Origin: an uncultured Christensenella sp.
GTDB lineage: Bacteria > Bacillota > Clostridia > Christensenellales > UBA1242
DNA length: 64,000 nucleotides
Assembly: GCA_949293905.1 (NCBI GenBank)
Contig: CASFFG010000002.1
Location: 12,153 to 76,152, forward strand
Direction: 5' to 3'
Shown here: positions 8,651 through 39,997 of the stretch, piece after piece
Layout of the letters: the number at the start of each line of letters is the position of its first letter
Position numbering within the stretch: position 1 is the first letter of the stretch
Made by a program: the position numbers and the translations under genes
Notes under the pieces: generated by a model
The model's database searches: none
What the model was told of the DNA's origin: nothing
What the model saw: the letters and a program-made list of their open reading frames with translations, nothing else

Positions 8651-8676
8651 CCGCTAAATAAACTTAGCGGGTTTTT
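8651..8676 (+). terminator. Rho-independent terminator
   Basis: Stem CCGCTAA (8651-8657) / TTAGCGG (8664-8670), followed by GTTTTT. Confidence 0.7.
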
Positions 8677-8713
8677 AATTTATTTTTTTAATTTTTTCAC
8701 AATAACGCAATTT

Positions 8714-12777: not shown

Positions 12778-13166
12778 AATTCCACCGCCACATATTTATT
12801 AAAAATTTCTAATATTCTATCATTATCATCAATTAAATATAAATATCCAATTAACGCTTCAAACTGAGTCGCTAAACTATACTCCGTTAAAGTACTATTC
12901 TTCGCCCGACTGTTTAAATGTGCATTTCTCGTTCGCATGACGATATCCAACTCGTCCGTATTTAACTCGGGTTTTATCATTTCCATGAATTTTGCCTGAG
13001 CCTTAGCACAAACAATTTCATTAGCGCGCTTGTTTAGTGAATTTGGCTTTGTATCATACTTTTTTACTAAGGCTTCTCTAACCATTAGGGTAAAAACACT
13101 ATCACCAAGGTATGCTAAAGTTAACATATTTCTCTGCTTAACGCGAGATTTTAATTCATTTCCCAT
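12774..13166 (-). CDS. mrnC: Mini-ribonuclease III
   Basis: Contains the LAYLGDSVFTLMVRE and FEALIGYLYL RNase III-like motifs. The ORF track start (GTG 13190) is replaced by ATG 13164-13166, because a promoter-like element ends 6 nt upstream of that ATG. Confidence 0.85.
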   Translation of the reverse strand: MGNELKSRVKQRNMLTLAYLGDSVFTLMVREALVKKYDTKPNSLNKRANEIVCAKAQAKFMEMIKPELNTDELDIVMRTRNAHLNSRAKNSTLTEYSLATQFEALIGYLYLIDDNDRILEIFNKYVAVEL

Positions 13167-13172
13167 GCAAAA

Positions 13173-13201
13173 AATATAACATATTTTCACTTTTTTGTAA
13201 A
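13173..13201 (-). promoter_or_regulatory. Candidate promoter giving a leaderless mrnC transcript
   Basis: Minus-strand reading is TTTACA (13196-13201), a 17-nt spacer, then TATATT (13173-13178), then TTTTGC, then ATG. There is no Shine-Dalgarno before either candidate start. Confidence 0.4.
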
Positions 13202-13270
13202 GAAAGTATAGAAAAACTTTGACAAATTATAAAAAATCGCATACAATTAAAATGAATTTGGAGAAATATA

Positions 13271-13762
13271 GTGGAATTTATTAAGCGTATGCGAAAGCGC
13301 GAATTTACAGAAATGACTTTGAAGACACTTATCGCTGTCTTTATGTCGTTTGTCGCAATTATACTTATGGAAGGCATGATTTATGGCATCGAATTAAACG
13401 CGCTTTATACTAACGGCTCTGCTTCTTATAGTTCGTCCGAAACTACTACGGCTTACTGCATTGAAGTAGAAGAAGACAGATATTTTGTAGTCTATCATAA
13501 TCCAAACACTGATGGTAGCGAGTGGTCCGCAACCGCATATACCTTAATCTCTCGCGAGGATTGCGAAAATCTTAGTGCGACTGTTGTGTACCATGCCCCT
13601 AACGCGTTTATCTTCTCAATAACTCCTGTACACTATGTTGTCATGGCGGTATTCTTGCTCGCTGTCGGCGGATATTTTACTTATAGATTTATAAAACTTA
13701 AAAAAGAATATACTAACATAATCGATAAATACGAAAAAGAAGGTATTATCGAATTAGAATAA
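13271..13762 (+). CDS. Membrane protein with two TM helices, function unknown
   Basis: 163 aa, GTG start preceded by GGAGAA. Hydrophobic segments lie near residues 20-45 and 120-145. Confidence 0.55.
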   Translation: MEFIKRMRKREFTEMTLKTLIAVFMSFVAIILMEGMIYGIELNALYTNGSASYSSSETTTAYCIEVEEDRYFVVYHNPNTDGSEWSATAYTLISREDCENLSATVVYHAPNAFIFSITPVHYVVMAVFLLAVGGYFTYRFIKLKKEYTNIIDKYEKEGIIELE

Positions 13763-13768
13763 AAACGA

Positions 13769-13808
13769 AAGAGTTGGTATTTATATGTTATATATCAACT
13801 CTTTTTTT
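13769..13808 (+). terminator. Rho-independent terminator
   Basis: Stem AAGAGTTG (13769-13776) / CAACTCTT (13796-13803), followed by a T-run. Confidence 0.6.
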
Positions 13809-13890
13809 GTTTCCTATTTTTCTTTTGTGTTTATTCTAATTTAAATAATATTCAATTTAATAAATAAACAAATTTTACACAAAATATGGT

Positions 13891-14112
13891 ATGGTATATT
13901 ATAATTATCATGCTATTGCAAAAAATTTAATCTCGTCCGGTCATTGTATAGGTGCGACACAATTTAAAAGATATAAACATATCTATCCTGCACTGGTGTT
14001 ATATTTTGATAATCATCGCCCTATCCCTATTCGCGAATATAGGTGGAACGATTATATCCCGCTTTTGTGTAAGCAACATATTGAAATAGCGCAAGGTGAA
14101 GAATTAGGCTAA
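13891..14112 (+). CDS. Small conserved-looking hypothetical protein (73 aa)
   Basis: ORF track only. The sequence YNYHAIAKNLISSGH...PALVLYFDNHRPIPIREYRW looks like a folded small protein, but I cannot name the family. It overlaps the addA stop by 9 nt (convergent). Confidence 0.45.
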   Translation: MVYYNYHAIAKNLISSGHCIGATQFKRYKHIYPALVLYFDNHRPIPIREYRWNDYIPLLCKQHIEIAQGEELG

Positions 14113-17100
14113 TTCACCATTTTCTATTGAGTATATTAAAGTTTTATTTACTGGCTTTTTGTAAGATAGTTCTACCGCTTTTTTATATAGCGCCAACTGT
14201 TCGGCATATTTTTCCTTTAATACGCGCGCGCTAAGGCGAGAAAATTTGTAATCTACTATCGTTATATTATCCGCATATTCTATAATTAGGTCAACCACAC
14301 CTTGTACAAGCACTCTATCTTCAACATTGCTTTTAACTAGACTGTTATATGGCACATACATCATAAATTCGGCTTCCTTTTTTACATTAATAGCATCAGT
14401 CACAAGTGGGCTTAATTTTTCATGTGCCAACTTGATTTTTTCATAGTCCACATCGCTAAATTCGGTATTTTTAACATACTTGTTTTTTAAGTCGAGTTGC
14501 TCTAGTGCGGAGTGATAATGTGTCCCAATGGTTGCTCTATCTTCTTCAGCATTCATTTGAACATATCTAGTTAATTCACGCTTTGTTTCAAACTTTGTTC
14601 TCTCATTTTCTTGAGTGTTAAGTCCTGTAACAGTGTTTTTAAAAGGAATATCAAATTTTTCTGCTTCTGGGTACGAAAAATCTTCGTATTCAATACTACA
14701 TTTATCTTCATTTGTTAAATCTTCTAATTTCAACTCTTTTTCGCTAAATCTTATGTTGGCATATTTGAAATCATTTTCGCCTTCAATCAATCTATCTTTA
14801 AAGCATGACAAAATACAGTTTAAATAACTGGTGTTTTTTAATTCGTCAATATCTTTAAAGAAATTTTCGCTATAACTACCCGTAATTATCAACTTATTTT
14901 TCGCGCGTGTCATAGCGACATATAATAATCTTAATTCTTCCTCATAACCCTTTTTGTTATTCTTTAATTTTATCGCAAATTTACTTAATGACGGCGATTT
15001 CGTCCTATTCTCGACATCAAAATAATCGAGTCCAAGTCCAATATCTCGGTTAAAGTTAATGCTAGGACTTTCCTTTATGAACGAAAACTGCTTACTAGAA
15101 TTATATAAAATAACGACTGGATATTCTAGACCTTTACTTTTATGTATGGTTTGAACGGTTACGCTATCCATTCTATCAACAGTAGAAAAATCTGCACTGT
15201 CATCGACATTACTCTCCACCATTTCAATAAATTCCGCTAAGTTCAAACTATCTTCGATAACAGAAATTTTTTGTAAAAACTCTTCTATCAATTGAAGTTC
15301 CTTTTCACCTTCAGCCTTAATTAGAAAATAGTATTTTAAGCGCATGTCGTTTAAAATATACCTTATTAATTCGCTATTTGTTTTTGTAAAACTAGCGTTT
15401 TTAATTTCTTCAACCCTTTTAAAACCTAGTTTGACCTTTTCATCATTACTATTTTTTAAATTTTCAATCAAACTTGTTTTCGTGTCGCGTATCTTTATAA
15501 AATCATCTATATCCATTTCGGTTAAAGCCATAAATGCCGCGTAATAATCCACATCGTCCGCCGTGTTCACAACGCATTTAAGAATAGATAAAATTAATTG
15601 TACTCCTTCACTTGATTTTACATCTAATTTGTTGTTTGAATTTACGGGGATATTATGTGCCTTTAACCGCTCTATTAATGTACTAGTAGCACTATCTTTT
15701 TCCGAGCGCGCGAGTATAGCGATATCACCATAATTTAGCGTCCTATATTCTTTCAATTTTGCGTCATAAAAACTCGTCCCAATAAACCTAGTTATCTCAC
15801 TAATTACATACGCGTCTTCTGCGCTGATTTCTTCTTTTTCGTCCATACTAGCATGCTCTTTTACACTGTAAATTCCGTTTGCTAAATCTTTACTTTCTTC
15901 TTTAAATAAAACAATCTTTACCTTATCATCAACAATATCATCGCGCTGTGGTTCAATTATAGCATCGTGAACATAATCAATTCCGCTAGTACTTTTTGTC
16001 ATGAGTTTTATAAAAATCTCGTTTATGAATTCTAGTACCTTGGGATTTGAACGAAAATTTACATTCATATCAAATTTCGTTCCCAATTCTTTGTTCTTTG
16101 CATAACTATTATACTTATCTAAAAACCACTCAGGGCTTGAACCCCGAAAGCCATAAATAGATTGCTTCACATCTCCAACAGTGAATAGATATGTATCTTC
16201 ACCCACTAGTGCGGACAATAGCGAATCTTGAAGTGGATTTACATCTTGATATTCGTCAATAAAAATGTATTTGTATTTTGATTTTAATTCGTTTTTTACT
16301 CTATCATTTTCTAGTAATTTTAGCATTAACCTATTTAAGTCGTTAAAATCTATTAAATTATTTTTTTCTTTTAAATTTCTGTAATTTTTAATAAAATCTA
16401 ATAGAATTTCAATAAAAATATCATAATATTGAATAATTTTTTCATTTTTTATATCAAAATTCTCGTCAATTCCATTTTCGTAGAACGAATTTTGCATTGA
16501 AATAAAATCGTTTATTGCCTTACTAACCGACTCTAATTGTGGAAATTTTGTTATCTCCTTTTTATCGAATTTCTCTAACTTTATTTCTTTTAATATAATT
16601 AAGTTCGCTTTTAAATTTAAGTTAGCATTTAATTTTTCAATCTCTTTGATATTTTGTTTTATTTTTACTAAAAGTTTATCGTCCAATTCCATATTTGCAT
16701 GGATTAAAACATCATATGTTTTTTTAGTTGCTTCCAATAAATAATTTAGTACAATCTTCTCACTATTTCTACTAGAGATATATTCTTCCCTAGATTTAGT
16801 TAAAAAATCTTCATAATCATCAATGTTGATTATCTCGTAATATGTATCTAGGATTATCTCTTTTAGTGTTTCAAAATTTCTCCTATTCCCACCATAAAAA
16901 TCTAGCATTAAATTCGCTTTATCACTATCTTTATTAAGTTTATTTAATGTCATATTCATGGCTCGAGTTAGATAGTAATCTCGACTAGCATCACTGATAA
17001 TCTCTATATTTGGAGAAATATTTAACTCATAAAAATATTTTTTTATTGTCTTGGAACTAAAACCGTCGATAGTATCAATACTCGCTGTTTTTACCTGACT

Positions 17101-17367
17101 TATTAAGGATAAAATTTTTTCCTTATTCTCGCTCTTAACTAAAATCTCGTTCAGTTTCTCGATAAGTCTAAGTTTCATTTCTTCACCTGCTAGGACGGTA
17201 AAGGTAACGACCAAGAGTGAGTCAACCGGGACATTCTCATTTATTATTAAATCAGCGATTTTCTCTATCATAACGGTAGTTTTACCGCTCCCCGCACCCG
17301 CACTGACTAGTTGATTTTTTGCGCGCGATAGTAGGATATCTCTCTGCACTCCTTCAAATTTAGGCAT
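14104..17367 (-). CDS. addA: ATP-dependent helicase/nuclease subunit A (AddA)
   Basis: Contains the UvrD-type Walker A AGAGSGKTTVM, DEYQDVNP, the helicase motifs VGDVKQSIYGFRG and a C-terminal RecB-type nuclease (GVVDLI...DYK). Start is set to ATG 17365-17367 after GGAGGTG. It overlaps the addB stop. Confidence 0.9.
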   Translation of the reverse strand: MPKFEGVQRDILLSRAKNQLVSAGAGSGKTTVMIEKIADLIINENVPVDSLLVVTFTVLAGEEMKLRLIEKLNEILVKSENKEKILSLISQVKTASIDTIDGFSSKTIKKYFYELNISPNIEIISDASRDYYLTRAMNMTLNKLNKDSDKANLMLDFYGGNRRNFETLKEIILDTYYEIINIDDYEDFLTKSREEYISSRNSEKIVLNYLLEATKKTYDVLIHANMELDDKLLVKIKQNIKEIEKLNANLNLKANLIILKEIKLEKFDKKEITKFPQLESVSKAINDFISMQNSFYENGIDENFDIKNEKIIQYYDIFIEILLDFIKNYRNLKEKNNLIDFNDLNRLMLKLLENDRVKNELKSKYKYIFIDEYQDVNPLQDSLLSALVGEDTYLFTVGDVKQSIYGFRGSSPEWFLDKYNSYAKNKELGTKFDMNVNFRSNPKVLEFINEIFIKLMTKSTSGIDYVHDAIIEPQRDDIVDDKVKIVLFKEESKDLANGIYSVKEHASMDEKEEISAEDAYVISEITRFIGTSFYDAKLKEYRTLNYGDIAILARSEKDSATSTLIERLKAHNIPVNSNNKLDVKSSEGVQLILSILKCVVNTADDVDYYAAFMALTEMDIDDFIKIRDTKTSLIENLKNSNDEKVKLGFKRVEEIKNASFTKTNSELIRYILNDMRLKYYFLIKAEGEKELQLIEEFLQKISVIEDSLNLAEFIEMVESNVDDSADFSTVDRMDSVTVQTIHKSKGLEYPVVILYNSSKQFSFIKESPSINFNRDIGLGLDYFDVENRTKSPSLSKFAIKLKNNKKGYEEELRLLYVAMTRAKNKLIITGSYSENFFKDIDELKNTSYLNCILSCFKDRLIEGENDFKYANIRFSEKELKLEDLTNEDKCSIEYEDFSYPEAEKFDIPFKNTVTGLNTQENERTKFETKRELTRYVQMNAEEDRATIGTHYHSALEQLDLKNKYVKNTEFSDVDYEKIKLAHEKLSPLVTDAINVKKEAEFMMYVPYNSLVKSNVEDRVLVQGVVDLIIEYADNITIVDYKFSRLSARVLKEKYAEQLALYKKAVELSYKKPVNKTLIYSIENGELA

Positions 17368-20300
17368 TCTCACCTCCAAACGACTCAGGTTTCACATTTT
17401 TTGCAATCCTTCTGCCAATCTTTGAACTAGATTTTAGACAAACATGCATATAAGGACAATACTGACAAGGGTCACTAACAGTACTTGGCGAAGGAGAAAT
17501 AAAACCAGATTTTATTTCGTCCACAGCATTCTCACTAACAGCCTTTGCATATTCTTTTAATGACAGCATTTCGTTCGAACTCAATTCCTTATATCCACGA
17601 GTCCGCCTAGCAAGTCCTTTTTTAGTAAGTCGAATATTGACTATATCGCTTTTTTCGTCCGGCTGAATTCGTCCATCTAATGCCTTTACAATTTCTTCGT
17701 TGTTTATGAAAAATCCATTTAGCGAATATCCACCGTCATCAAGTTTCGTATATGCGTTGTGTAGTGGCAAGTAAAATCCGCCGACAACAGATTTCTTCAA
17801 CTCATTTTCCATGGCGCAAGAATATAGGAAAAGTTGAAGTTTATTCCCATAATACAATTCTTTTAAACTTGCATTTGCTCTACCTGATTTATAATCAATA
17901 ATGCGTAACATGTCATTGTATTCGTCCACTCTATCCACAGTTCCAATCACATCAATATTTTTCAATTTCAACGCAGTACCTCCGCCGAATTTATGTTCTA
18001 GAAGTATATTTACAGGCTGGAACGCAGAATTTTCGTCTATATAATTTAATCCATATATTACGCGAACACTCTCGTCTATTAAATTTGTAATAATTGGACT
18101 GCTCGACTTCAATTTTAGACGCGGATTTTTATCAATAAAAGCAAAAACTTCATCACGACAAAACTCATAAATATCGCCTACAACTTTATTTCTTTTGTAA
18201 TACTTATAGAGGAGTTCATGTAAGATATTTCCCACATCAAACGATTGAATTTCACTCTCTTCTCGCTCTTTGATTTTTAAAACATTTGCCGAAAAATAAT
18301 AGAACGGACACTTAAAATAGTTCTCTAATTGAGAGGCTGAAATAGTATTTAAATTTTCATAAATTTTTAAGTTATCATTAGATATTTGAGAAAAATTCTT
18401 ATTTTTTATTGAAATTTCATGGTTTTTGCTATATTTTTCATTAAAATTTAAAACAAAATTATTATTTTTAGAATTTTGTTTACAAATCTTTTCAATATAA
18501 TCCCAACGGCTCAATGCAAGATTTTTACCTAAATTCCCCACTTCAACCGGACATAAATTTATCCCCTTATCCTTTGTCCTGACAATCACTCGATTGCAAA
18601 TTTCAGTTACAAGTTCACTCGCCGTTTTTGAATATGATATAGTAAGTGAATTGTTGAATTGTAAGCACGTGTTAAATAATCTCAACTTGCTTAACCTGTT
18701 TATATGGGCGATAGTTGGTGCGAGTTTATGTGAGAAATTAAGTTCTTCTATCTCACTATCGAGAATAATTCCGCAATCATTTTTTAGACTAGGAGCGGAC
18801 TCGTTTGTGCAGTTCAAAATGTATAAATTATTAAAGACTTCCATACAGTCTTTTGCGTCAACTATCTTAACGGCATCTAATGTCTGTGGAAGATTATTTA
18901 TCTTAACGATTGATGCCACGCGCACTAAAATATCATAAAGCGAAGTCATATCAATTTGCGGATAGAACTTATCCACTTCTAATAGTAAATTGTTTACCAT
19001 TTCACGCGATTTTAGGAGCAAAAGTCTATCTTGCAAACTTGAATTATTGTTAGCAAGACTTAATAGTTTGCCGTCAAAATCTAAAATCTTATTTGCATTT
19101 TCTAGCATATCAAAAATATCATTAACATTAAAAGTCGCATCAATAATAAACAAATTTATAAATTCTTTAAGTTTATCTTTTTCCGCAATTAAATCGTCTC
19201 CAAAATCCACAAAATCCAACTTTAGACTACGGAATTCACGCTTAATCAGGATATCACAAATCTTATATTTTTTTTCTTGTTCAATATCAAAAAAGGGTGA
19301 ATTAATCATGTCAATTAAATGCGTTAACTCATATCCTTCAAGATTAAATTTAAAAATGCTAACTAAAAATTTATAAAAAACGCTTTTATTTAGCGAAAAA
19401 TCGCTATCTAAATAATAATTTATTTCGTATTTTGAAAAAATTTCGTTAAAAATATTATTTTTGCCTTCCAAATCATATGTGGCTATACCAAAATTCGAAT
19501 AGTTCTCGCCGTGCAAAATTTTAGACCTAATATCTCGTGCAACAAACTCAATCTCTGCGCGAATGCTGTTTGACGCGAATACCCTAACTTCGTCCTTCTT
19601 TAAAGTAAATTTTTCATTCGTTGTTGAAAAAATATTATCAGTTAAAAATTCTCGAATTCCATTTGAATATCCAACTTTGCTGACCTTATCAAAAGGCAGT
19701 TCGTTTATGTATGCGATATTTCTTAATTGCGATTCAATTTCAGTATTGTAAATATATCTATTTTTCTTATCAGTCATATAGTTTAGAATATAAACATTAT
19801 TTTCAATAGCCAATCTCTCTATAATCGAATACTCAATCGCAGTGTAATCATCAAATCCTACAAAGATGATTTTCTCATTGTGGCGATTCTTGGCGACCGT
19901 CAGCGTTGACATAAGGAATGTATCCGATTGGTCAAGCAGTCCCGCCTTATGCTCTTCGTACTGCGTATAAATTAGACTTAAATCAAGAATTTTATCCATT
20001 AATTGAGCATTATTTGACTTAAAATCTTCCATCTCTTGTGGTGTAATTTTGCTAGCCTTTAATTGTTGGATGGTATTGTAAATTTCTTCCGCATATGAAA
20101 AAGAATACGCCTTGCTTTTCAGTACTTTAAGGTTGTTGATATTTTCATTTAGTATTTTATGTATTAATATTATGCTACCAACTTTTGTTATTTCGCTATC
20201 CTGCGAGATATTTAGCGTTCGTTTTGCAAACCTGTTTAACGTACTAACTTTTATGTCGAAACTCGCTTCAATCTGCAGTTTTTCAAAAATATATCTTTCC

Positions 20301-21803: not shown

Positions 21804-21894
21804 GGAGAGTTACTCAAGAGGTCGAAGAGGCGTCCCTGCTAAGGATGTAGGCGTCGAAAGGCGCGCGAGGGTTCAAATCCCTCACTCTCCGCCA
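21804..21894 (+). tRNA. tRNA-Ser (anticodon GCU), CCA encoded
   Basis: Hand-folded cloverleaf. Acceptor is GGAGAGU/ACUCUCC, anticodon stem CGUCC/GGAUG, loop CUGCUAA. It has a long variable arm and T-arm GAGGG-UUCAAAU-CCCUC. Confidence 0.95.
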
Positions 21895-22119
21895 ATACCA
21901 CAATATGTAGTAGTGTTTAAACGATTTGACAATTATATTTTGATTATTTTGTTAAGTCGTTTTTTTGTTGTGTATAATTTGTGTACAGTTTTAAATTATT
22001 TGTTATATCTATAAATCAACAAAAAAATATAAATACATAGTTAAAACAACTTTTAATATACATTGTAACTATCTATATAAAAAATTGTTATTTGGTAATA
22101 TTATTCTTAGGAGTAAATC

Positions 22120-22485
22120 ATGAAAGATACCATAACAATTATTAAAGATAGAATTCAAAATATCTTAAAGCGAAGAAATATGACAATTTATGAACTTGCA
22201 AATCTCGCCGATGTTTCCGAAGCGTGTATTAGGAATTGGTATAGTAAAAGAAACTATGTACCCAGTTTACCATCTTTAATTAATATATGTAAAGTATTAG
22301 ATATAAGTTTATCTCAACTTGTTATGGCGGAAGATGAAGAATACTTCCCCATCGATAAAGAATCTAAAGCGTTATTAACGGATTGGTTTACATTGGAGCC
22401 TGACGTAAGAAAAAGTATAATGAATATAATACATTATATAAATAAGGATAAGACAAAAGATGAAATCAACAACTCTAATCGATAA
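22120..22485 (+). CDS. XRE-family HTH regulator
   Basis: 121 aa. ILKRRNMTIYELANLADVSEACIRNWYSKRNYVPSLPSLINICKVLDISLSQL is a Cro/C1-type HTH. Shine-Dalgarno is TAGGAG. Confidence 0.75.
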   Translation: MKDTITIIKDRIQNILKRRNMTIYELANLADVSEACIRNWYSKRNYVPSLPSLINICKVLDISLSQLVMAEDEEYFPIDKESKALLTDWFTLEPDVRKSIMNIIHYINKDKTKDEINNSNR

Positions 22486-22996
22486 ATCTCAAATAAATAA
22501 GTTGGTTGAGTTAACTGGACAAGGCAACTGGGACGCTTTTAAAAAATTAGAAGATTCAATGTATCCTATCTTATATAAATTTTTGCGTAAATACACTTTT
22601 GATGATGAACTTATAAAAGATATTGTTTCTACTACATTTTGTATTGTCATTGAAAAATCTAAAAGAAAAATGTTATATTTAAACTGTTTTAGTTGGATAA
22701 TTAGTATAGCAAAGTATCAAATGATTAACCATCTAAGGAAAAATAAAAATCTAGTTTATTCTGATAAATTAGATACACTGAGTAATGAAAGCAATTTCAT
22801 AACTAAATTATCGATTAAACAACTAATTGGTAACCTGGATAATAAGAGTAAACAATTATTATACTTATTGTATTTTATAAAAGCGAAACATAATGAAATC
22901 AGTAAGATAATGAAAATTTCAAAATCAACCATAAAACGACGCAATAAGGAACTTATATTATATTTGAAGGAGCAAATTCAAGATGAAAAAGATTGA
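22460..22996 (+). CDS. Sigma-70 family (ECF-like) sigma factor
   Basis: 178 aa. A region-2-like segment (DIVSTTFCIVIEK...FSWIISIAKYQMINHLRK) is followed by a region-4 HTH (HNEISKIMKISKSTIKRRNKE). The ORF overlaps both neighbours. Confidence 0.7.
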   Translation: MKSTTLIDKSQINKLVELTGQGNWDAFKKLEDSMYPILYKFLRKYTFDDELIKDIVSTTFCIVIEKSKRKMLYLNCFSWIISIAKYQMINHLRKNKNLVYSDKLDTLSNESNFITKLSIKQLIGNLDNKSKQLLYLLYFIKAKHNEISKIMKISKSTIKRRNKELILYLKEQIQDEKD

Positions 22997-23636
22997 AGAT
23001 GAAATTTTTGAGTATTTTGACGAACAAACTATACCCGAATTAGACGAAAATGCCAATAATAAATTTAAAGAATTAGTTGCAAAAAACAAGAATAAATCAA
23101 AAGCAAACTTTTGGAAAAGGTTTGCTCTTATTTCTGCAGTTTCTGTCTGCTGTTTATTGTGTTTGGCTATTCCGTTAATTGCATTATTGCATAACCCCCA
23201 ACCTGCGACTACCTTCTACTCTGACGATGAAGCAACAAAGATAGATATGACTGAAACGGAATTTGATTCATTTATTCAAAACGAGTTCCCACAATATGAA
23301 TTTCTTACTACAGATTTTAGCTTCCAATCAGCACTGGCTTTTTATGAACCAAACAGCGATAACTTATTGGCTGTTAGACTGATAGCCGATGAAAATGTAC
23401 AGCCTTACACAAATATTCAAATATATTTAGTTATTAGTAATAAATTTACATTGTCTAATGAAAACACTTATACTGACAACTCTACGTATAAAGAAACGGA
23501 CAAATATAAACTTTATAATAAAACTGAATATAATGTGTATACTGAAAACATGTTGTCCTATGTAATTTTTCCGTCATACAAATTATATATACAATTTAAT
23601 TGCTCAAACTACACACTTCTTGAACAATTTTTGTAA
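22983..23636 (+). CDS. Single-pass membrane protein, anti-sigma-factor-like by position
   Basis: 217 aa with one TM helix (FALISAVSVCCLLCLAIPLIALL) after a short cytoplasmic N-terminus. Translationally coupled to the sigma gene. No recognisable zinc anti-sigma motif. Confidence 0.4.
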   Translation: MKKIEDEIFEYFDEQTIPELDENANNKFKELVAKNKNKSKANFWKRFALISAVSVCCLLCLAIPLIALLHNPQPATTFYSDDEATKIDMTETEFDSFIQNEFPQYEFLTTDFSFQSALAFYEPNSDNLLAVRLIADENVQPYTNIQIYLVISNKFTLSNENTYTDNSTYKETDKYKLYNKTEYNVYTENMLSYVIFPSYKLYIQFNCSNYTLLEQFL

Positions 23637-23712
23637 AATTTTAAAAAATTTTGTAATTTTTTGAACCTTTTTGCCAAATAAATCTATAATTTAATAGCAT
23701 TATGGAGGTTAT

Positions 23713-24519
23713 ATGGTTAAAAAGGTTTTTTCATTTATTTATACTGTCGTGATAGGACTATGTTCTACTATAATTCCTATTAACACAGGATCATATTATT
23801 GTGACAGCTATTCAGGTTTTGGCACAGGTGGAGTCTCTCATACAGAAGTAATTAATTATGATAGTTATACTATGAGCGATGTCCATTTGGACAACTTGTT
23901 CCCTATATATATTAGTAGTTATGGAACTAATGCTTGTGCATCTACTGCTGGCTCAATGCTAGTTACTTATCATGACATTGATTTCACCAATTTGCTACCA
24001 AACTACACACCTGGTTCAGTGACAAACGGAATGTACCGATATCAATCACAAAATTCAACAATTAATGCTCTAATGGCTGAAATGTATGAACTAATGGGAA
24101 CAAATACAATTAATCCAGGGACATCGGTCAACCAATTTATGACCGGAATGTCTCAATACTATACGAATCATGGCTATACTATTAATTTTACAAAATTGTC
24201 TAATAGTTTAGATTCAAACACTGTAACGACTTATTTAGAACAAGAAAAACCACTTATATTATTTTTGAACTCATATGACTATTACGACGCCCTTGGTGTA
24301 TCAATTGGAGATACGACAATGCGAATGGTAGGTTTGTATAAAGAAGCTGGGCATGTGGTCATTGCTTATGGCTATCGAATATTTAACTTTTACCAAGATG
24401 GAGATTTGTTTAGAACTGATAAATATTTAATTGTATCATTTGGAGATGGGACTACTGGATATATGTCAATAAACGAAACATCTTATATCGATGAAGTTTA
24501 TGTCTCAACGGTTAGTTAA
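23713..24519 (+). CDS. Secreted papain-fold / C39-like cysteine peptidase candidate
   Basis: 268 aa with an N-terminal signal-like hydrophobic segment. Contains a candidate nucleophile context GTNACASTAGSM and a candidate His context EAGHVVIAYGY. Motif-level call only. Confidence 0.4.
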   Translation: MVKKVFSFIYTVVIGLCSTIIPINTGSYYCDSYSGFGTGGVSHTEVINYDSYTMSDVHLDNLFPIYISSYGTNACASTAGSMLVTYHDIDFTNLLPNYTPGSVTNGMYRYQSQNSTINALMAEMYELMGTNTINPGTSVNQFMTGMSQYYTNHGYTINFTKLSNSLDSNTVTTYLEQEKPLILFLNSYDYYDALGVSIGDTTMRMVGLYKEAGHVVIAYGYRIFNFYQDGDLFRTDKYLIVSFGDGTTGYMSINETSYIDEVYVSTVS

Positions 24520-24742
24520 AATTCTTGCTGATAAAATTCGAATTTTAACGGTATAAACATTAAATTTTACATAAACAATAAAAATAAATAATAGAAAAAG
24601 TATTTAAATTAGTAAATAGATTAGCAATCTAGAAAATTAAGATTATATATAAATAAGTTTTTTGAACTAAGAAAAATTTTACAGAGCCTTGAAAGTATGA
24701 GAAATAGCATTGGATACTATAAAATGACATTGCACTTAAACT

Positions 24743-24768
24743 ATTTCTCAATTTGAATTTCTCAATTT
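24743..24768 (+). repeat. 12-bp direct repeat ATTTCTCAATTT x2 upstream of the RHS gene
   Basis: Copies at 24743-24754 and 24757-24768, a 14-bp period. Confidence 0.8.
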
Positions 24769-24880
24769 TTAAGTAAATCCATAAACAATTTTCAACAATC
24801 TACTCTATAAAAAACGTCAATTCAAAAAATTATAGCAAATTTAAATTAAGATAAAAGTCTTATCTTAAAAGGGGAATTTT

Positions 24881-27800
24881 ATGTTTAAAATAAAAGTTAA
24901 CGACGTTTTATTAAATACAAACGCTAGTGGAAATATTTATGCAGACATTGCCTTACCTGCATCGTTAAACAATGTTAAAATAACTAAGGCAAAATTAAAA
25001 TTAGTAGTGAATAAAGATAAAAATTCAAATAATAATGAAGAAATCTCTGTAAATTACGAATATGTTAAAGATGGAATTGTGAATTTAAGATGGGAAAATA
25101 TTGACCATTTATCAAATTTGGCAAACGGTGATGTGATTTACATAGATTTTTTAAACGAACTTCAAGACGCATGTACTTTGGGTGCATCTAATCTACATTT
25201 AGTGTTTTGCAAGAATACCACAAGTGATTTAACTTTTAATGAAATTAATTCATCAAACGTAGATGTAGAATGTATATCGTTATACGAATATGAGTCTAAT
25301 TCAGGCTCGCACGAAATTGACTGTGGTCGCGCAGGAGTAGTCTCAATAAATCTATCAACTGGCGAATTTTCTCTAAATCACTTTGATGTTAAAAGTGATA
25401 GCAATACTTTACCCCTTATAATCGCACATAATTATAACTCTTCACCGGCTAATAATTTTAAATTTTTCAATGATGAGAATTTCGATACTCATTGTGGTAA
25501 AGGTTGGAAATTAAATATTCAGCAATATTTGAAAAAGGTAAATTCTCGGTCTAATTTGAACAATGGTCACAATCAAGACAACTCGTTAAATTTTGAATAT
25601 ATTGACGCAACAGGCAAAACTCAACTTTTGCATAATTCAGTGAAAATCAAGAGTGAATTAGAAGATTTGCCTATTAAATCCAACCATCTAAAAGGTTTAA
25701 TTAAAACTCAAGTGCCTGTATATTATTTGTGTAATGATGATAATATCATTTACGGATTTGGAAAGACTGCTGATGAAAATATTTTTAGACTGATTTTAAT
25801 AACTGACGCATATGGAAATGGCATCTATATTAATTACGAAGACTTAAATAGTAACAAGATAATAAGCCTTATAAATTCAACAGGAAATTCATTTTTATTT
25901 AACTACAATAAACAAGATTTGCTAGAAAGTATTGTGGATTCAAGGAATAGAAAAATCAATTTTGAATATGAGAATAATCTACTTACTAAAATCACCTACC
26001 CTGACAAAAATTACAGCCAATATTTATACAACCCAGACAATAAAATCATTGCGGTAATAGACCAATCTGGGTTGGGAAAATATTTTGAGTATAACGACAA
26101 GGGCAAAGTGACAAGAATAATGACCTATCATAAAGATGAACCATCAAGAAAGTTTTATCAAGAATTCATGCTCGACGAAAAAGGAAGAATTACATCTTCT
26201 ATTAATGAATTTGGAATAACTGTTTCTAATTACGTTTATCTTGATGGAACCAACATAATTTTAAAAGAAATTGATAAAAATGGAAACATTATTTCGTATG
26301 ATTATGATAAGAATGTCCACCTTATTGGTCTAACCACTTCTTCAAATGGCGAAGAAAATACTAATATTTATGGCTACACTTTAAACTATCTAACTTCACT
26401 CAAACACAATGATTTTGAATACAATTACGAATATGATAATCTTGGTAAATTGAATAGAATTTTAATTGCCAACGAAGTATATTTTACTAAATCTTACACT
26501 GACAATAGCGAAACTATAACATATAAAAATGGTGCAACATTTAAACGAACTTTTAATAGTGACGGCAAAATAACGAGTGTCGAATATAATCAAGCACCTA
26601 TTCTAGAGAATGTTTATGACCCACTTGGAAATTTAATTAAATCTACTGATAAAACTAATAATGAATCAAACGTTCATAACTATTACTATGATAAATTTGG
26701 AAATCTTTACAAAGAAACTTCGACTCAACACTCTATCAATGTTGAAATTAAAAATACTATTGACAAGAAAACCGGGGATACGACTGCTAGTGAAATCAAA
26801 TTAGGGAATAAAACTCTAAATTATTCGTACAACTACAATAAGAATTTTGTTAATAAACTAGATAATGTAGTACTGCCTAATAAGAAAACACAATATATCG
26901 TAAATGATAAACTATGTAGAACTTATGAGATTAAATTGGATAGCCATATTAAACTATATCACTATTTATCTAATGGTGACCATACATCTAATTTGATTTC
27001 TAGTGTTTGGTATGGAGACCGCGATAAGATTAATGGAAATTATAGATACAAATATGACGAAAAGGGCAATATTATTGAAATTAAAGAAAATAGTATTCTC
27101 ATTGCCCGTTACAAGTATGATAATTTGTCTAGGTTAATTCGTGAAGATAATAGATTATTCAATAAAACGACCACTATTGAATACGATGCGGGTGGTAACA
27201 TAGTTTTTAAATTAGAATATTTGTTTACATTAACAGATAATTTAAACGAAAGTACTCCTGCTGCTATCTATCCTTATCTATATAAGTCTACAGGTTGGCG
27301 TGACCAACTTGTTTCATATAATGGTGAAAACTTTGCTTATGACGAAGTCGGTAACCCTACTACTTGCCGTGGAGAGACATTGATTTGGAGCCATGCTAGG
27401 CAAGTTGTCCAACTTGGAGATTGTAAGTACACTTACAACGCAAATGGCATTAGGACTAGCAAAATTGTTAATGGCGTTAAAACTAAATTCTTCTTAAATG
27501 GCAATAGAATAATCGCTCAAGATGACGGAAATATTATATACTACCATTATGGAGCCGATGGTATCGTAGGCTTTACGCTTCAATTATCTAATACCGATAT
27601 TCAAGAATATACCTACAAAAAGAATATTCAAGGTGATATAATTGGGATTTATGAACTAGAAAATGTATTAATTTGCAAGTACATTTATGATGCTTGGGGA
27701 AACACAAAAACGCTTATTTTATCTAGTAATGGTAGTTATGTTGACATCTCATCTACCTCAAACGATACATGCGTTAATACCAAATATTTATTCATCGCAA

Positions 27801-28012
27801 ACTTAAATCCTTTCCGCTACCGTGGTTACTACTTCGATACTGAAACAGGACTTTATTATATAAACAACAGGTACTATGACCCAGAAATTGGTAGATTTAT
27901 TAACGCTGATGAGATTGGCAATATAGATACCGAAAATCTAAACGGCTTCAATCTCTATATTTATTGCGCCAACAATCCAGTAAACAATGTACAGCCTAAA
28001 GAAATTAATTAA
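24881..28012 (+). CDS. RHS/YD-repeat protein ending at the RHS core (no C-terminal toxin domain)
   Basis: 1043 aa with many YD repeats (YxYDxxGNL, e.g. YKYDEKGNIIEI, YDAGGNIV). The RHS core end is PFRYRGYYFDTETGLYYINNRYYDPEIGRFINAD...NLYIYCANNPVNNVQPKEIN-stop. Confidence 0.9.
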   Translation: MFKIKVNDVLLNTNASGNIYADIALPASLNNVKITKAKLKLVVNKDKNSNNNEEISVNYEYVKDGIVNLRWENIDHLSNLANGDVIYIDFLNELQDACTLGASNLHLVFCKNTTSDLTFNEINSSNVDVECISLYEYESNSGSHEIDCGRAGVVSINLSTGEFSLNHFDVKSDSNTLPLIIAHNYNSSPANNFKFFNDENFDTHCGKGWKLNIQQYLKKVNSRSNLNNGHNQDNSLNFEYIDATGKTQLLHNSVKIKSELEDLPIKSNHLKGLIKTQVPVYYLCNDDNIIYGFGKTADENIFRLILITDAYGNGIYINYEDLNSNKIISLINSTGNSFLFNYNKQDLLESIVDSRNRKINFEYENNLLTKITYPDKNYSQYLYNPDNKIIAVIDQSGLGKYFEYNDKGKVTRIMTYHKDEPSRKFYQEFMLDEKGRITSSINEFGITVSNYVYLDGTNIILKEIDKNGNIISYDYDKNVHLIGLTTSSNGEENTNIYGYTLNYLTSLKHNDFEYNYEYDNLGKLNRILIANEVYFTKSYTDNSETITYKNGATFKRTFNSDGKITSVEYNQAPILENVYDPLGNLIKSTDKTNNESNVHNYYYDKFGNLYKETSTQHSINVEIKNTIDKKTGDTTASEIKLGNKTLNYSYNYNKNFVNKLDNVVLPNKKTQYIVNDKLCRTYEIKLDSHIKLYHYLSNGDHTSNLISSVWYGDRDKINGNYRYKYDEKGNIIEIKENSILIARYKYDNLSRLIREDNRLFNKTTTIEYDAGGNIVFKLEYLFTLTDNLNESTPAAIYPYLYKSTGWRDQLVSYNGENFAYDEVGNPTTCRGETLIWSHARQVVQLGDCKYTYNANGIRTSKIVNGVKTKFFLNGNRIIAQDDGNIIYYHYGADGIVGFTLQLSNTDIQEYTYKKNIQGDIIGIYELENVLICKYIYDAWGNTKTLILSSNGSYVDISSTSNDTCVNTKYLFIANLNPFRYRGYYFDTETGLYYINNRYYDPEIGRFINADEIGNIDTENLNGFNLYIYCANNPVNNVQPKEIN

Positions 28013-28223
28013 AAGCATTGAGTAATTGCTATTATATAAATTACAAACCCACTACACCTAAACTATTTAAATCTATGAATAAGATAAGTTGAGTTTAATA
28101 ATAAGACGTTAAATTCTCTATCAATTAATATAAAAATAAAAGCATGCAAATAAATTTTAAATATTTAACTAAATTTTAATGCTTAATTATTTATTTTATG
28201 TTATAATATGTGCGGAGGAACAA

Positions 28224-28601
28224 ATGAAAAAATTAGTTATTTATCGTTGCGAAGTTTGCGGGAATATCGCTGTAAAGTTAGTAGATAGCGGAGTTCCTAT
28301 GGTCTGCTGTGGGCAAAAAATGGTGGAGATTAAACCTAACATGAATGACGGTGCAGTTGAAAAACATATGCCAGTAGTTGAAGTTTCTGGGAATATCGTT
28401 AAAGTACAGGTTGGTTCCACTCTTCACCCTATGACCGCTGAGCATTATATTTCGCACATTATCATTGAAACAAATAAAGGTTATAAAGTATTCAATCTAA
28501 CACCTAAAGATGAACCAAAGGTTGAGATGACTCTTGGGGCAAAAGAAAAGGTTAATAAAGTTTACTCAATATGTAACCTTCATGGTATTTGGGCAAAATA
28601 A
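28224..28601 (+). CDS. dfx: Desulfoferrodoxin (superoxide reductase)
   Basis: Start is ATG 28224 after GGAGGAAC. The N-terminal desulforedoxin motif is CEVCGN...CCGQ. The SOR centre has H...H...CNLHGIW. 125 aa. Confidence 0.9.
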   Translation: MKKLVIYRCEVCGNIAVKLVDSGVPMVCCGQKMVEIKPNMNDGAVEKHMPVVEVSGNIVKVQVGSTLHPMTAEHYISHIIIETNKGYKVFNLTPKDEPKVEMTLGAKEKVNKVYSICNLHGIWAK

Positions 28602-35852: not shown

Positions 35853-38800
35853 TTATGCTAATAATTCTGGTGGATATACCTTATTGAATGAAACTCCATA
35901 TCTTTTTTGTCCAGCACGATCAGCAAAATCTTTCATGCTATTCATCAAACCATTTCTGTTTTTAAATTTATCCACTACTGTATCAAAACTTTCTTGGTAA
36001 ATATTTGCCAATTCTTCACATATCTCTTTGCATTGCTCTTGTATTTTAGATATATCTTCTTTTGTATATGACTTTCTGTATAATGGAGCACGCAAACCTT
36101 TATCTAAATCTATCCAAGTGTCAAGTGCTTCTTGCATTAGCAGCGCAAACTCTTTATCATACTCAGTATGATTTTTTAGATTTTTTAGCGATATTTTTGC
36201 TCTATTTAACCTGTCAATTAATTCCTTCGAATAATCTTTTGTCTTAGGTTTTGTATCAATAGTAACAGCATCTTCACTCACAAATTCGGCATTCTCCCAA
36301 TCTATACCTAATGCATTTCCGCCACCATTTCCAGATTCAATAGCGTTCTGCGAATTGTCAACAAAAGCATTTATCGTTATATTGTATTCATTTTTGGCGA
36401 CATCTACTAATTTGTCTTGTAATGCTTGGATAGTTGTGTTTATGCTATTGCTACTAGATTTTAAAGTTTCCTTCATCTCGCTCGTACTAGCCGCTATCTG
36501 TCTACCGAGATCGTTATTACTATCTTTTATTACTTGTAATTGAGTTAATAACTCATTAAATTGGGCTTCGTCTAATTTTTCTTTCCTTGTTTGTAAAGAT
36601 TGAGAGATTGACTTAATTTCATTAAACATATTTGTAATTTCATCAGCCAAATACCTTTGTTTATCAAATTGCAACTCTCTTTCTTTTTGTTTTATTAATC
36701 TATTATTTTTATCATACTCATTTCGCACTGAATCTAGGTTGATATCTACAATTCTTTGTTTTAATTCTTCGCGATCGCCGCTTTCTAATATCGCATCTTC
36801 GTCTATATTTTTCGAGAGATTTTCAGCATTGTTGATTTGATTATCAAGTTCCGCATTTAAATCCTCTATCTCACTTAGACACTCTAATTCGGTTTTTATA
36901 TCAATATCTTCATTTAGTTTATTTTTTTGTTCGTCTATTTTTAATAATAAATTTGCTATATTGCTTTCTAAATTGTTGATATTTTGCTCATATTTATCTC
37001 TTTGTTCTCTTTGCGCTCTCTGTTCTGCTAGCACACGCTCTGCTTCTTCATTGACTTGTTTTGCCTGCTCCCATTCTGCCTTTCTTCTATTTTCTTCTTC
37101 TAGATATTCATTATATTTTTCTCTATCCAGTGCTTCATTGTTGTTAATGAGATCTAGGTCAGCTTGGTAAGTCTCTTCTTGAACTGCATTTTCAACTCGT
37201 CCGTCTTTTAATTCGCTTTCGTCAGTGTGAGTTGTTTTATACTCTTTGGCTACCTGTTTAAATCTCTCCTTTAAACTATTTAATTTTGCTTCGGCATTCT
37301 TCTTCTCTTCTTTTGAAAGTTTTTCTTTCCCAACATATTTGAATTCGCCTGTTTTTACATCTAGTTCGTAATCATTTAAGAATTCTTTTTCTTCAGGAGT
37401 AAGCCTAGCAAATTCGTAAGTAAAATCATAGTCTTCCAACATTTCAGTATCAGCAACATCGTTAGTTTGCTTATCAAAATACTTGCAAATTGCATAACCT
37501 TTTGCTATTTGAAGTTGTTCCCATTTCTTCTCAAACTCTTTATCTGCCAATGTTGCGTGATTAGACAAACGGAAATTCTTTTGCATTTCAGTGAGTTTAT
37601 TGTTTTCTGCTTCATACTCACTCTTTAAAGCAGGGTTAGATTTTAACTGCTTTTTTAGTTGTTTTACTTTAAGTTTTTGCTGTTTGATTGCTTCCTTGTA
37701 ATCATCGCAAAGTTTTGCATTCCCTGCGCTAACTTGAGCAACTCCGTCGACCATATTTAAGTTAGTTAAATAATGCATACTGGATACATTATAAAGTCGC
37801 TCTTCAAGATTGGAAATCTCGCCTAAGAACACATCAATGTTCTCAATTTGATTTTCCTTTGTTGCTGTAAACAAATTGGTTAAATCTTCAGTGTATCCCT
37901 TTTCAAATGCTTCCTTATTTAGTTTATTAGGGTCTTTAAGTTTTTCCAAAAATCTATTTTGAATCCAACATTTAGCAGCAATCACTGCCGGTGCAATAGC
38001 GAGTCCCGCGCCTATCGTTCCAAAAATCACCCCTGCTGTCACTAAGTTTGGTATCAGTGCCGCTATAGCAACTGCCGTTACGAGTCCGCCCCAACTAAAC
38101 ATAAGTGGAACAAACGCGCCAATACTTTTATAGAAATCCTTTATCTCATCGCCCGCTTTATGATTTCCCCAGCCGACAATATGCTTTCCGTCAAATCTTA
38201 AGTTTCGTGAACTGATAGATTTATACTGACTCGAATCTGCAAACGGGGCATCTACAAGTTGAGTATCACTTATAACATACTTTTTCCCTTTTTCGTCGAG
38301 TTTTACTAACTTTCCGTTTATTATAGCATCTTCCAACTGATACTGTCCAGATTTGTACCTTGCGTCGAAATCTACCATTGCAGTCGTTACTATGCCTAAT
38401 TTTTCTTTATTCGCAACTCTATCTTCGTTATATTCGTATATTACCTTACACTCTTCGCTAAGATTGATTTTAGGACGATTTGTCGTTTGTATAACATCAC
38501 ACTGATGTAATGGATTTGTCGAGCGCTTTAATGCTCTCGGTTTCTGTTCTTCAACACTTGTGATAATTCTAAAACCATCTTTCGTCTTTCCCTTTATCAC
38601 ATCGGCACGGTCTACAATACGAGTCTGCACACCTTCCACATTAGGAATTCGGCAATATACGAGATATTTATCAGCGGGAGCATCTTGATTTTCAGCATAA
38701 ACATAACCTATTGGACGCGCGGTCTTTTTCTCTTCCACAAACTTACCGTTATTTAGGCGCAAATAGGTGGTTTCATTTTCTTCCGCCTTATAATCTTCAT

Positions 38801-39869: not shown

Positions 39870-39888
39870 ATACACCTCTCTTTTGATA

Positions 39889-39899
39889 ATTATAGCACA
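39889..39899 (-). promoter_or_regulatory. Extended -10 promoter (TGTGCTATAAT) for the 1338-aa gene
   Basis: Minus-strand TGTGCTATAAT ends about 20 nt upstream of the ATG, just downstream of the preceding terminator. Confidence 0.5.
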
Positions 39900-39997
39900 C
39901 GCGCAGAGAAAAATCAATATTTCAACGGACTTTTAATTAAAATAGTAATTGATAAACATGATTAAATTCCAATGAAATTAATGAAAATTTTTTGATA

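Follow-up and report, generated by a model that had tools for sequence, protein, structure and literature searches.

A probably decayed mobile cassette beside a tRNA-Ser gene and its recurring core of sigma factor, membrane protein and cysteine peptidase

Why should a sigma factor, a membrane protein and a secreted peptidase stand in one row with a large RHS protein? The question is raised by a block of co-oriented genes 3' of the tRNA-Ser(GCU) gene in a 64,000-nucleotide stretch of contig CASFFG010000002.1 from an uncultured Christensenella sp. (this whole stretch is called the window below). The block encodes an XRE-type regulator, a sigma factor of the extracytoplasmic function (ECF) kind, a single-pass transmembrane (TM) protein in the position of an anti-sigma factor, a cysteine peptidase and an RHS/YD-repeat protein (Table 1). 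The original prediction was of a sigma/anti-sigma pair that serves the RHS protein alone and of a peptidase that processes this protein. Comparison with relatives leads us to a different answer. Judged from gene neighbourhoods, the evolutionarily constant unit is the sigma factor together with the TM protein and the peptidase, and the RHS toxin is one cargo among several that can replace one another. We also consider it highly probable that the block in the window is a partly decayed chromosomal copy of a cassette that derives from a mobile genetic element (MGE) of uncultured gut Clostridia (Christensenellales-like).

Neighbourhoods were sampled for nine lineages out of more than 400 peptidase clusters, and this limited scope has to be held against our conclusion. 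The triad of sigma factor, TM protein and peptidase was present in all nine, in two gene orders, whereas RHS genes were present in only two, and a homologous sigma gene adjoins every sampled relative of the peptidase. Within the group to which the window belongs, L014 and L009 have the RHS gene, while L010-13 lack it but have an activator gene. In L003 (peptidase 46% identical) the order is XRE-sigma-TM-peptidase with no RHS gene. In L008 (37% identical) an XRE gene and a sigma open reading frame (ORF) are followed by TM-peptidase-activator, and L099 has sigma-TM-peptidase-activator. L103 contains a helix-turn-helix (HTH) gene and, further on, sigma-TM-peptidase near a phage integrase. The order of the last two genes is reversed in L101 (XRE-sigma-peptidase-TM), in L097 (sigma-peptidase-TM beside PcfJ/PcfK) and in L004-7, where an RHS array is followed by sigma-peptidase-TM and, in L005, Mob_Pre is nearby. 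L100 has sigma-peptidase at the end of a contig, beside primase and SNF2 genes. A metagenome scan for further loci added just two, and a scan of viral contigs added none. As a separate remark on annotation, the sigma ORF of L008 (about 4300-4960) is complete and lies between the XRE-like and TM genes, but it is not called in the public record.

Because the triad occurs in all nine lineages and RHS genes in two, the peptidase appears to belong with the sigma/TM pair and not with the RHS protein, and it is probably not an RHS-processing enzyme. This is a comparative argument, and we next describe the genes on which it stands.

The layout itself had been described correctly: five co-oriented genes do lie 3' of the tRNA gene, and the first three overlap. 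One correction is due: the 361-nt gap at 24520-24880 holds the remains of a further, sixth gene. Family searches, hydropathy and relatives uphold all five annotations. The XRE protein matches HTH_26 (E 2.9e-10) and Phage_CI_repr (E 1.3e-6) in Pfam and the transcriptional repressor phrog_3 (E 1.2e-11) in PHROG. The sigma protein scores 54.2 bits with the NCBIfam model TIGR02937 sigma70-ECF (cut-off 42.9), 25.1 bits with Sigma70_r2 at residues 34-96 and 23.7 bits with Sigma70_r4 at residues 123-164. It also matches the sigma factor family phrog_1740 (E 2.4e-14), and its best models are generic ECF and SigY-like. Neither the 217-aa (amino acid) protein nor the 268-aa protein of the window has a direct family match in Pfam or NCBIfam. 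Hydropathy gives the former one strong TM segment (residues 43-73) and the latter an N-terminal hydrophobic segment (residues 4-24); the same analysis detected no hydrophobic segment at the N-terminus of the RHS protein.

It had been asked whether these genes are syntenic in other genomes. They are: L014 shows the five-gene order at 76% nucleotide identity, and L009 shows it too, so these genes did not come to lie together by chance. A second assembly of the window's own cassette, L002, is 99.6% identical to window positions 22303-25784 with a single gap. The gene calls of L002 split the XRE/sigma region into fragments of 73 and 91 aa, which reflects either a frameshifted allele or an assembly error.

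Table 1. Features of the block in the window and blocks collinear with the relative L014
Feature	Window coordinates	Strand	Remarks
tRNA-Ser(GCU)	21804-21894	+	ARAGORN; flanks the block on the left
Upstream control region of the XRE-sigma-TM operon	22026-22119	+	left end of cassette homology (blastn against L014 starts at 22026)
XRE/Cro-CI-type HTH regulator, 121 aa	22120-22485	+	first cassette gene; 26-nt overlap with the sigma gene
ECF-like sigma-70 family factor, 178 aa	22460-22996	+	regions 2 and 4 only
Single-pass membrane (TM) protein, 217 aa	22983-23636	+	anti-sigma position; start overlaps the sigma stop by 14 nt
Promoter-like element before the peptidase gene	23661-23690	+	TTGAAC-N18-TATAAT, CTTTTT tract after the first hexamer; consensus scan
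Signal-anchored clan-CA cysteine peptidase (predicted), 268 aa	23713-24519	+	divergent Peptidase_C39_2
Activator pseudogene remnant	24520-24843	+	
Inner hairpin of the RHS leader	24846-24868	+	outer stem of intact leaders, pairing with the Shine-Dalgarno sequence, deleted; RNA folding
RHS/YD-repeat protein, 1043 aa	24881-28012	+	shortened derivative of relatives of about 1,650-1,830 aa
RHS junction 1	25625-25695	+	71 nt in place of about 683 nt (L014 8748-9430); blastn
RHS junction 2	26089-26091	+	in-frame loss of 1116 nt (L014 9827-10942); blastn, blastp
Right end of homology	27985-28178	+	toxin region and small downstream genes gone; desulfoferrodoxin next
Collinear block: control region through peptidase	22026-24519		L014 4998-7500; blastn
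Collinear block: end of activator gene and RHS start	24718-25624		L014 7807-8747; blastn
Collinear block: RHS	25696-26091		L014 9431-9826; blastn
Collinear block: RHS	26089-27984		L014 10943-12841; blastn

What an intact cassette looks like can be learned from L014, a 142-kb gut metagenome contig. It encodes, in order, an XRE protein of 121 aa, a sigma factor of 180 aa, a TM protein of 217 aa, a peptidase of 270 aa, a 134-aa protein and an RHS protein of 1826 aa (P0016). These are followed 3' by a 46-aa membrane ORF, an orphan RHS tip of 208 aa (glycine-zipper-like) and a 169-aa ORF. No terminator-like site was found on the + strand of L014 from the XRE gene to the end of the downstream genes. 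Besides the orphan tip, the small downstream genes include a possible immunity gene, for which the 46-aa membrane ORF is a candidate. The 134-aa protein matches PHROG 248 'transcriptional activator' (E 4e-13), and also PHROG 36, DUF1492 and Sigma70_r4; by these matches it is a phage-type activator with an HTH resembling sigma region 4.

Activator and RHS gene also occur together outside the cassette. The RHS relatives L015/L016 (48% identity) have neither sigma factor nor TM protein nor peptidase. Upstream of their RHS genes lie an S24 (LexA/CI-like) repressor and a 123-aa activator homologue, downstream lies a 100-aa ORF, and the activators of these triad-less loci and of the cassette match each other at E 1e-11. 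The RHS leaders of L014 (7956-8000) and L009 (11258-11302) fold into a two-tier hairpin in which the anti-Shine-Dalgarno sequence UACUCCUU pairs with the Shine-Dalgarno sequence AAGGAGUA. Folding energies are -17.2 kcal/mol (z -4.1) and -14.5 kcal/mol (z -4.2), respectively, and none of 200 shuffled sequences folds as well. According to this folding model, the hairpin may act as a translational gate on toxin synthesis.

All close RHS relatives have at least 1,388 aa, most of them 1,650-1,830 aa. Solved Rhs structures in the PDB are matched by relatives of the window protein. In P0016, in P0018 (1793 aa) and in the orphan tip of L014, a DENGN or DDTGN sequence is followed by a C-terminal region of about 200 aa. 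The tips of the relatives come after NNPVNxxDxxGN, which in this clade takes the place of the DPxGL-type self-cleavage motif at the core's end, and the C-terminal region of P0016 (about 210 aa) is rich in glycine zippers and TM segments. In L004-L007 (about 5000-8900), several orphan RHS C-terminal fragments alternate with small ORFs 3' of an RHS gene of 1,834-1,843 aa. Such a run is a typical polymorphic-toxin 'tip' array, and the sigma-peptidase-TM triad comes after it.

Compared with this, the copy in the window has lost a great deal. Alignment with L014 by blastn gives four collinear blocks of 73-77% identity (Table 1). Between the peptidase and RHS genes, the DNA alignment with L014 and L009 reveals several deletions, and most of the activator gene is gone or scrambled. 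Translation of what is left meets nine stops, with a relic that reads GYYKMTLHLNYFSI*ISQFLSKSINNF where the intact gene has MEHYKIAMRLNYSTIRIYQLLNKAIKEF. From this evidence the activator gene of the window is a pseudogene. The RHS leader of the window folds at -6.8 kcal/mol only (z -1.4).

The RHS protein is shortened twice internally. The loss at junction 1 corresponds to about residues 250-463 of P0016, which are rich in coiled coil, and the loss at junction 2 to about residues 612-956, an inserted beta-rich domain; both segments are present in every close relative of about 1,650 aa or more. In the blastp map, residues 1-365 of the window protein correspond to P0016 1-350, 259-406 to 464-611 and 379-1037 to 957-1616. 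What remains is recognizable as RHS: the repeats match PF05593 RHS_repeat (E 5.6e-15) and TIGR01643 (E 1.3e-14), there is a DUF6531-like region at residues 156-222, and the Rhs_assc_core model TIGR03696 scores 70 bits (cut-off 32.5) at residues 968-1039. The protein ends with NNPVNNVQPKEIN*, four residues past the core, and homology to relatives stops right after NNPVN. Hence, of the polymorphic-toxin-type shell that had been proposed, the repeats and the core are there, while the toxin domain is not. When P0016, P0018 and the L014 orphan tip were used for comparison, the window protein had neither a DxxGN self-cleavage motif nor a C-terminal toxin domain, and the C-terminus of P0016 has no match anywhere in the window. 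Nor was a downstream immunity gene found: the next gene is desulfoferrodoxin, and the downstream ORFs of L014 and L015 are unmatched in the window. As judged by this comparison, the window copy has a disabled toxin arm (its activator is dead, and the stem that masks the ribosome-binding site, the cleavage motif, the toxin and the downstream genes are lost), and the RHS remainder is probably an empty shell.

The other genes present a different picture. The ratio of nonsynonymous to synonymous substitution rates (dN/dS) against orthologues is 0.06-0.24 for all genes and 0.06-0.10 for the XRE gene, and the regulatory and peptidase genes of the window are intact and under purifying selection. For the RHS gene the values against L014 and L009 are 0.13-0.15. 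Here dS is above 1, that is saturated, and a recent relaxation of selection is invisible to dN/dS; the ratio therefore says little about the recent history of the RHS gene, and we dropped it as an uninformative test of RHS decay.

Where did the cassette come from? Homologous cassettes sit on mobile DNA: ArdA, PcfJ, rve integrase and rolling-circle Rep genes surround the cassette of L014, and others lie among PcfJ/PcfK, phage integrase and Mob_Pre genes; in L009 the same cassette is found beside Hachiman and restriction-modification genes. Of the window, only 22026-27984 is homologous to the mobile cassettes. We considered base composition as a sign of foreign origin and rejected it, because the block, at 25-33% G+C, does not differ in this respect from the DNA around it. 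It had been noted that no integrase or tRNA-derived direct repeat is visible, and we can confirm this: the block contains no integrase, and the last 25 nt of the tRNA-Ser gene, searched in the window with up to three mismatches, matched only the tRNA gene itself; nor was an att site found.

The neighbouring leucyl-tRNA synthetase (LeuRS) served to find the closest genomes, which are metagenome-assembled genomes (MAGs) of uncultured Clostridia/Christensenellales; the LeuRS is 91% identical to that of an 'uncultured Christensenella sp.' MAG and 81% identical to that of Candidatus Onthoplasma. Even where LeuRS is 91% identical, the genes downstream of it are no longer in the same order, and for this reason no clean 'empty site' can be presented. 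In L027 (LeuRS 81% identical), LeuRS is followed by 7.6 kb of unrelated genes, tRNA-Ser(gct) and AddB. According to our reading of the ORF translations, the cargo there (12602-19948) comprises a leucine-rich-repeat surface protein of 923 aa, a protein resembling choloylglycine hydrolases, an unknown protein of 497 aa and, abutting the tRNA gene, an IS3-type transposase. Because L027 carries a different cargo at this place, the tRNA-Ser...LeuRS site is, on comparative grounds, a variable region. Horizontal acquisition, as had been suggested, is thus plausible, and the cassette is best described as of mobile origin and not as a classical integrase-defined island.

Which kind of enzyme is the 268-aa protein? 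A search of 5.8 billion proteins returned 14 close clusters, two of them pre-annotated as PF13529 Peptidase_C39_2, and a profile search of 1.84 billion cluster representatives gave 522 matches, 431 of them at E<=1e-10. By size the family falls into members of about 270-300 aa and members of about 390-400 aa. We considered whether the larger relatives might be Rosetta-stone fusions, but their additional part is an extra secreted N-terminal domain and not a fused part of the anti-sigma protein. Across 61 diverse members, C75, H214, M128, G136 and G145 are the only invariant residues. PF13529 is matched by 6 of 13 close and 16 of 61 distant relatives (best E 9.5e-7), and no other peptidase family was matched by the 61. 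The AlphaFold (AF2) model is good (predicted local distance difference test, pLDDT, 85; predicted template modelling score, pTM, 0.82) and has C75 at the start of a helix (75-88) and H214 at the start of a strand (214-228). Foldseek matches include a 2026 entry named 'P210 CD lyase', the C39 domain of the PCAT1 transporter (probability 1.0), the papain-like amide synthase CtaG and, among viral models, cathepsin B. Against solved structures, a single-sequence search returned nothing significant and a broader profile nothing at all; the peptidase profile returned streptopain alone (E 0.3), around the Cys.

The Cys/His peptidase-like contexts noticed earlier are thus part of a papain-like signature, given the invariance of C75 and H214 in 61 members and the C39-type structural matches. 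We accept, from family profiles and the structural model, that the protein is a clan-CA cysteine peptidase, secreted or anchored in the membrane, that is a distant relative of C39_2 and has C75 and H214 as candidate catalytic residues. It does not appear to be a confident member of any curated family. PF13529 itself has been discussed as a single-domain peptidase of uncertain role and as a catalytic domain of endolysins (PMC10318531, PMC8223927).

The TM protein has a cytoplasmic N-terminus of about 45 aa and, beyond its membrane segment, an outer domain of about 145 aa. Where homology among the TM proteins can be detected they are homologous, as for the window protein with those of L008 (E 8e-21) and L003 (E 1e-11). 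Its 'anti-sigma' label is putative and derives from position, topology and synteny. When the TM proteins of the nine lineages (13-66% identity) were aligned, the sole invariant residue was Y79. It lies in the juxtamembrane sequence TFYSDDE, and the family motif [F/Y/R]-Y-x-[D/S/E] is found 8-12 residues outside the membrane. A similar sequence, SYYCDS, is located in the N-terminal part of the peptidase just past its own anchor, and its Y29 is invariant among 13 relatives. The two motifs may vary together from locus to locus. The TM protein and the peptidase have, respectively, TFYSDD and SYYCDS in the window, ETYYCD and EGYYCD in L003, KYYTSS and KYYCDT in L008, KRYTDN and KRYCDD in L103, and FYAES and AYGES in L004. 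The best 6-mer scores between TM and peptidase segments average 19.5 for the same locus and 17.0 across loci, compared with 12.9±3.4 for shuffled segments (permutation p = 0.04 for the pairing). This similarity suggests that the peptidase may cleave the anti-sigma-like TM protein at the Tyr motif. One could go on to regard the motif as a recognition site of the peptidase, both for its own maturation and for site-1 cleavage of the anti-sigma-like protein, but the sequences are suggestive only in this respect. Apart from this, one TM homologue, P0056, is identical to the window protein over about the first 130 residues and then diverges to the level of the family, a pattern that points to recombination inside the outer domain.

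Control regions were compared as well. The region upstream of the XRE gene contains repeated ATTGTAAC / ATTGTTAT motifs and a TTGTTA...TATAAT-like promoter, and it is nearly identical in the window, L014, L009, L010 and L012; such conservation would fit a role as operator or promoter. Before the peptidase gene, TTGA(A/C/T)(A/C)CTTTTT is kept at a constant distance from the start codon in L014, L009, L010, L012, L003 and L008, and its core TTGAnnCTTTTT is kept in L003 and L008 as well. Combined with cleavage of the TM protein by the peptidase, a promoter at this place would make the circuit self-amplifying. No ECF-type motif common to the XRE and peptidase upstream regions was found. The weak promoter candidate AAC-N18-CGTC proposed for the sigma factor (24796-24820) had to be discarded, since it lies inside the activator pseudogene and is not conserved in L014 or L009.

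How might an intact system of this kind work? The XRE protein would repress the operon, and the TM protein would hold the sigma factor at the membrane. An extracytoplasmic event would free the sigma factor, and that event may be cleavage of the TM protein by the peptidase at the invariant juxtamembrane Tyr motif. The sigma factor would then drive the peptidase-activator(-RHS) unit, thereby creating positive feedback, and the activator would boost RHS expression. A decayed MGE-derived cassette with a sigma-TM-peptidase core, protease gating included, is in our opinion the best explanation overall, and we regard it as fairly probable. Our belief in the protease-gating step taken alone, which is deduced from the motif comparison, is tentative at most. 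A bolder version would make the triad an undescribed mobile switch: the peptidase would be a dedicated site-1 protease that cuts the anti-sigma protein at a Tyr motif present also in its own pro-segment, and the self-amplifying switch would deploy cargo such as RHS toxins via a phage-type activator and a leader that masks the ribosome-binding site. This version we consider rather unlikely.

Several observations weigh against the preferred explanation, in addition to the limited sampling mentioned above. No anti-sigma domain was detected in the TM protein, which matches no Pfam, NCBIfam or PHROG family; its AF2 model is poor (pLDDT 56), and a fold search with this poor model gave no match at E<=0.001. 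The motif pairing is a weak test with eight pairs. The 268-aa protein of the window itself has no Pfam match at E<=1, and the TM-scores of its Foldseek matches are modest (0.3-0.46). The element before the peptidase gene also fits the housekeeping consensus TTGAAC-18-TATAAT, no conserved ECF-type AAC...CGT element was found upstream of the XRE, peptidase or RHS genes, and sigma-70-type matches are not in excess (59 versus 51±7 in shuffled sequences). On the side of decay, the RHS ORF is open over 3132 nt at about 29% G+C, both of its internal losses keep the frame, and its dN/dS is similar to that of the other cassette genes.

The last three of these points, along with the assembly of an identical sequence from independent samples, would also be expected if the 1043-aa RHS protein were a functional short form, either a toxin-less surface or adhesion shell or an acceptor that regains a tip by recombination. 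Such a protein would have to do without the DxxGN motif and everything past it, without the inserted domain and the coiled-coil segment kept by its relatives of about 1,650 aa and more, and without an export signal; neither an orphan tip nor an immunity gene is nearby, and the adjacent activator is a pseudogene with nine stops. We find a functional short form improbable. Even less can be said for a sigma/anti-sigma pair dedicated to the RHS protein with the peptidase as its processing enzyme, which we now regard as very improbable. RHS proteins cleave themselves through their own core, and this core is present in the window protein, where moreover no toxin is left to be released. The pair can hardly be called dedicated when the triad occurs without RHS in seven of the nine lineages and the close RHS relatives L015/L016 do without the triad. 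The adjacency and common orientation of the genes in the window, L014 and L009 do speak for the idea, and so does the second lineage (L004-7) with an RHS array beside sigma-peptidase-TM. Papain-like releasing peptidases are known within polymorphic toxins, but in the literature they are domains inside the toxin and not separate genes (PMC3482391).

It is harder to choose on the question of gating. In classical ECF logic the TM protein would sense an envelope or extracellular cue by itself, and the peptidase would be an effector that the sigma factor induces. It could be a secreted protease whose targets are antimicrobial peptides or proteins of competitors, or it could hydrolyse the cell wall and so help to free the signal-less RHS toxin by lysis. 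ECF operons commonly include an effector enzyme, as in sigV-rsiV-oatA of B. subtilis, and the peptidase gene does have its own conserved promoter-like element. The relatives of about 400 aa, with their extra secreted N-terminal domain, are pro-enzyme-like, and neither a signal peptide nor a recognised export domain is present in the RHS proteins. Peptidase_C39_2 is listed as an endolysin catalytic domain in phages of Gram-positive bacteria (PMC8223927). Lysis is made less attractive by the fact that there is no cell-wall-binding domain and that no holin was identified. An effector role also leaves unexplained why the sole invariant residue of the TM protein sits in a motif common to the N-terminus of the peptidase, and why the three genes stay together, in both orders, in every sampled lineage. 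Classical ECF logic without protease gating is possible, if doubtful, in our judgement, and we keep the decayed cassette with a gated sigma-TM-peptidase core as the preferred explanation.

Some features outside the block deserve a short remark. The mechanical ORF of desulfoferrodoxin is 28179-28601, but its true start is probably 28225, because the ribosome-binding site GGAGGA precedes that ATG and the Pfam match begins at residue 18. On the - strand of the window, a 2997-aa ORF (54793-63786) has no Pfam family at E<=1e-4; the same threshold yields no match for ORFs of 1354 aa (35853-39917) and 804 aa (49661-52075), also on the - strand, which have housekeeping genes around them.

The practical consequence is that an annotation of the window should not present this locus as an active RHS toxin system, because its toxin arm is disabled. 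A wider interest comes from the intact relatives. Regulation and release of RHS-type polymorphic toxins in Gram-positive gut anaerobes are largely unknown, and these toxins lack a recognised export signal. The comparison reveals a layered, phage-like chain of control on mobile elements, with a repressor, a sigma factor, a membrane partner, a secreted peptidase, a small activator and a masked ribosome-binding site, and within it the sigma-TM-peptidase triad stands on its own as a module that can be reused. If it is true that the peptidase gates the sigma factor, it would represent a new class of site-1 protease in regulated anti-sigma proteolysis. We found no description of a cassette with a sigma/anti-sigma pair, a C39-like peptidase and an RHS protein in the open-access literature. 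In a comprehensive survey of polymorphic toxins, papain-like and C39-like domains are listed solely within toxin proteins; the survey mentions PrsW-linked systems but no separate secreted peptidase with a sigma/anti-sigma pair (PMC3482391).

Among known systems, the cassette resembles ECF pairs that are freed by proteolysis, such as SigW-RsiW of B. subtilis with its site-1 protease PrsW, and SigV-RsiV. In these too, the gene of a small sigma factor (regions 2 and 4) is translationally coupled to a following gene for a single-pass membrane protein, the pathway has a genetically linked protease, and output genes lie further downstream in the operon. The cassette differs from them in having no recognised anti-sigma domain and no AAC/CGT-type promoter, in being mobile and headed by an XRE repressor, and in encoding, instead of a polytopic membrane metalloprotease or signal peptidase, a secreted papain-like (C39_2-like) peptidase that may cleave the TM protein. 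TcdR-family sigma factors control clostridial toxins and bacteriocins (TcdR/TcdC in the pathogenicity locus, PaLoc, of C. difficile; UviA-bcn in C. perfringens). There too, a dedicated sigma factor and a membrane-associated antagonist are found beside a large signal-less toxin, on or near mobile DNA, in Clostridia. Unlike those systems, the cassette has an RHS polymorphic toxin as cargo, together with an activator and a peptidase, and its sigma factor fits generic ECF and SigY-like models best.

With RHS/YD-repeat toxins (WapA of B. subtilis, Rhs effectors of type VI secretion systems, the Tc toxin TcB-TcC) the cassette has in common the repeats and core and, in its relatives, variable tips, small downstream genes and orphan tips. 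The window protein differs from them by the absence of tip, cleavage motif and downstream immunity-type gene, and the RHS family of the cassette by the absence of a Sec signal, LXG, PAAR or VgrG-linked N-terminus, its N-terminal domain being uncharacterised. The 123-136-aa protein directly 5' of intact RHS genes, placed as in a phage switch downstream of a CI/XRE-type or S24 repressor, is like phage late-gene activators (DUF1492; PHROG 248 and 36), which we take to be of the RinA/ArpU type. In the cassette, unlike in phages, it stands beside a toxin gene and not beside morphogenesis genes, and in the window it is a pseudogene. Finally, in Myxococcus the ECF sigma/transmembrane anti-sigma pair DdvS/DdvA controls a CBASS-CRISPR island (PMC11506125). 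Phylum and cargo are different there, and no co-encoded peptidase is mentioned in the abstract. DdvS/DdvA sets a precedent in that an ECF factor and its transmembrane anti-sigma protein are dedicated to turning on a conflict system.

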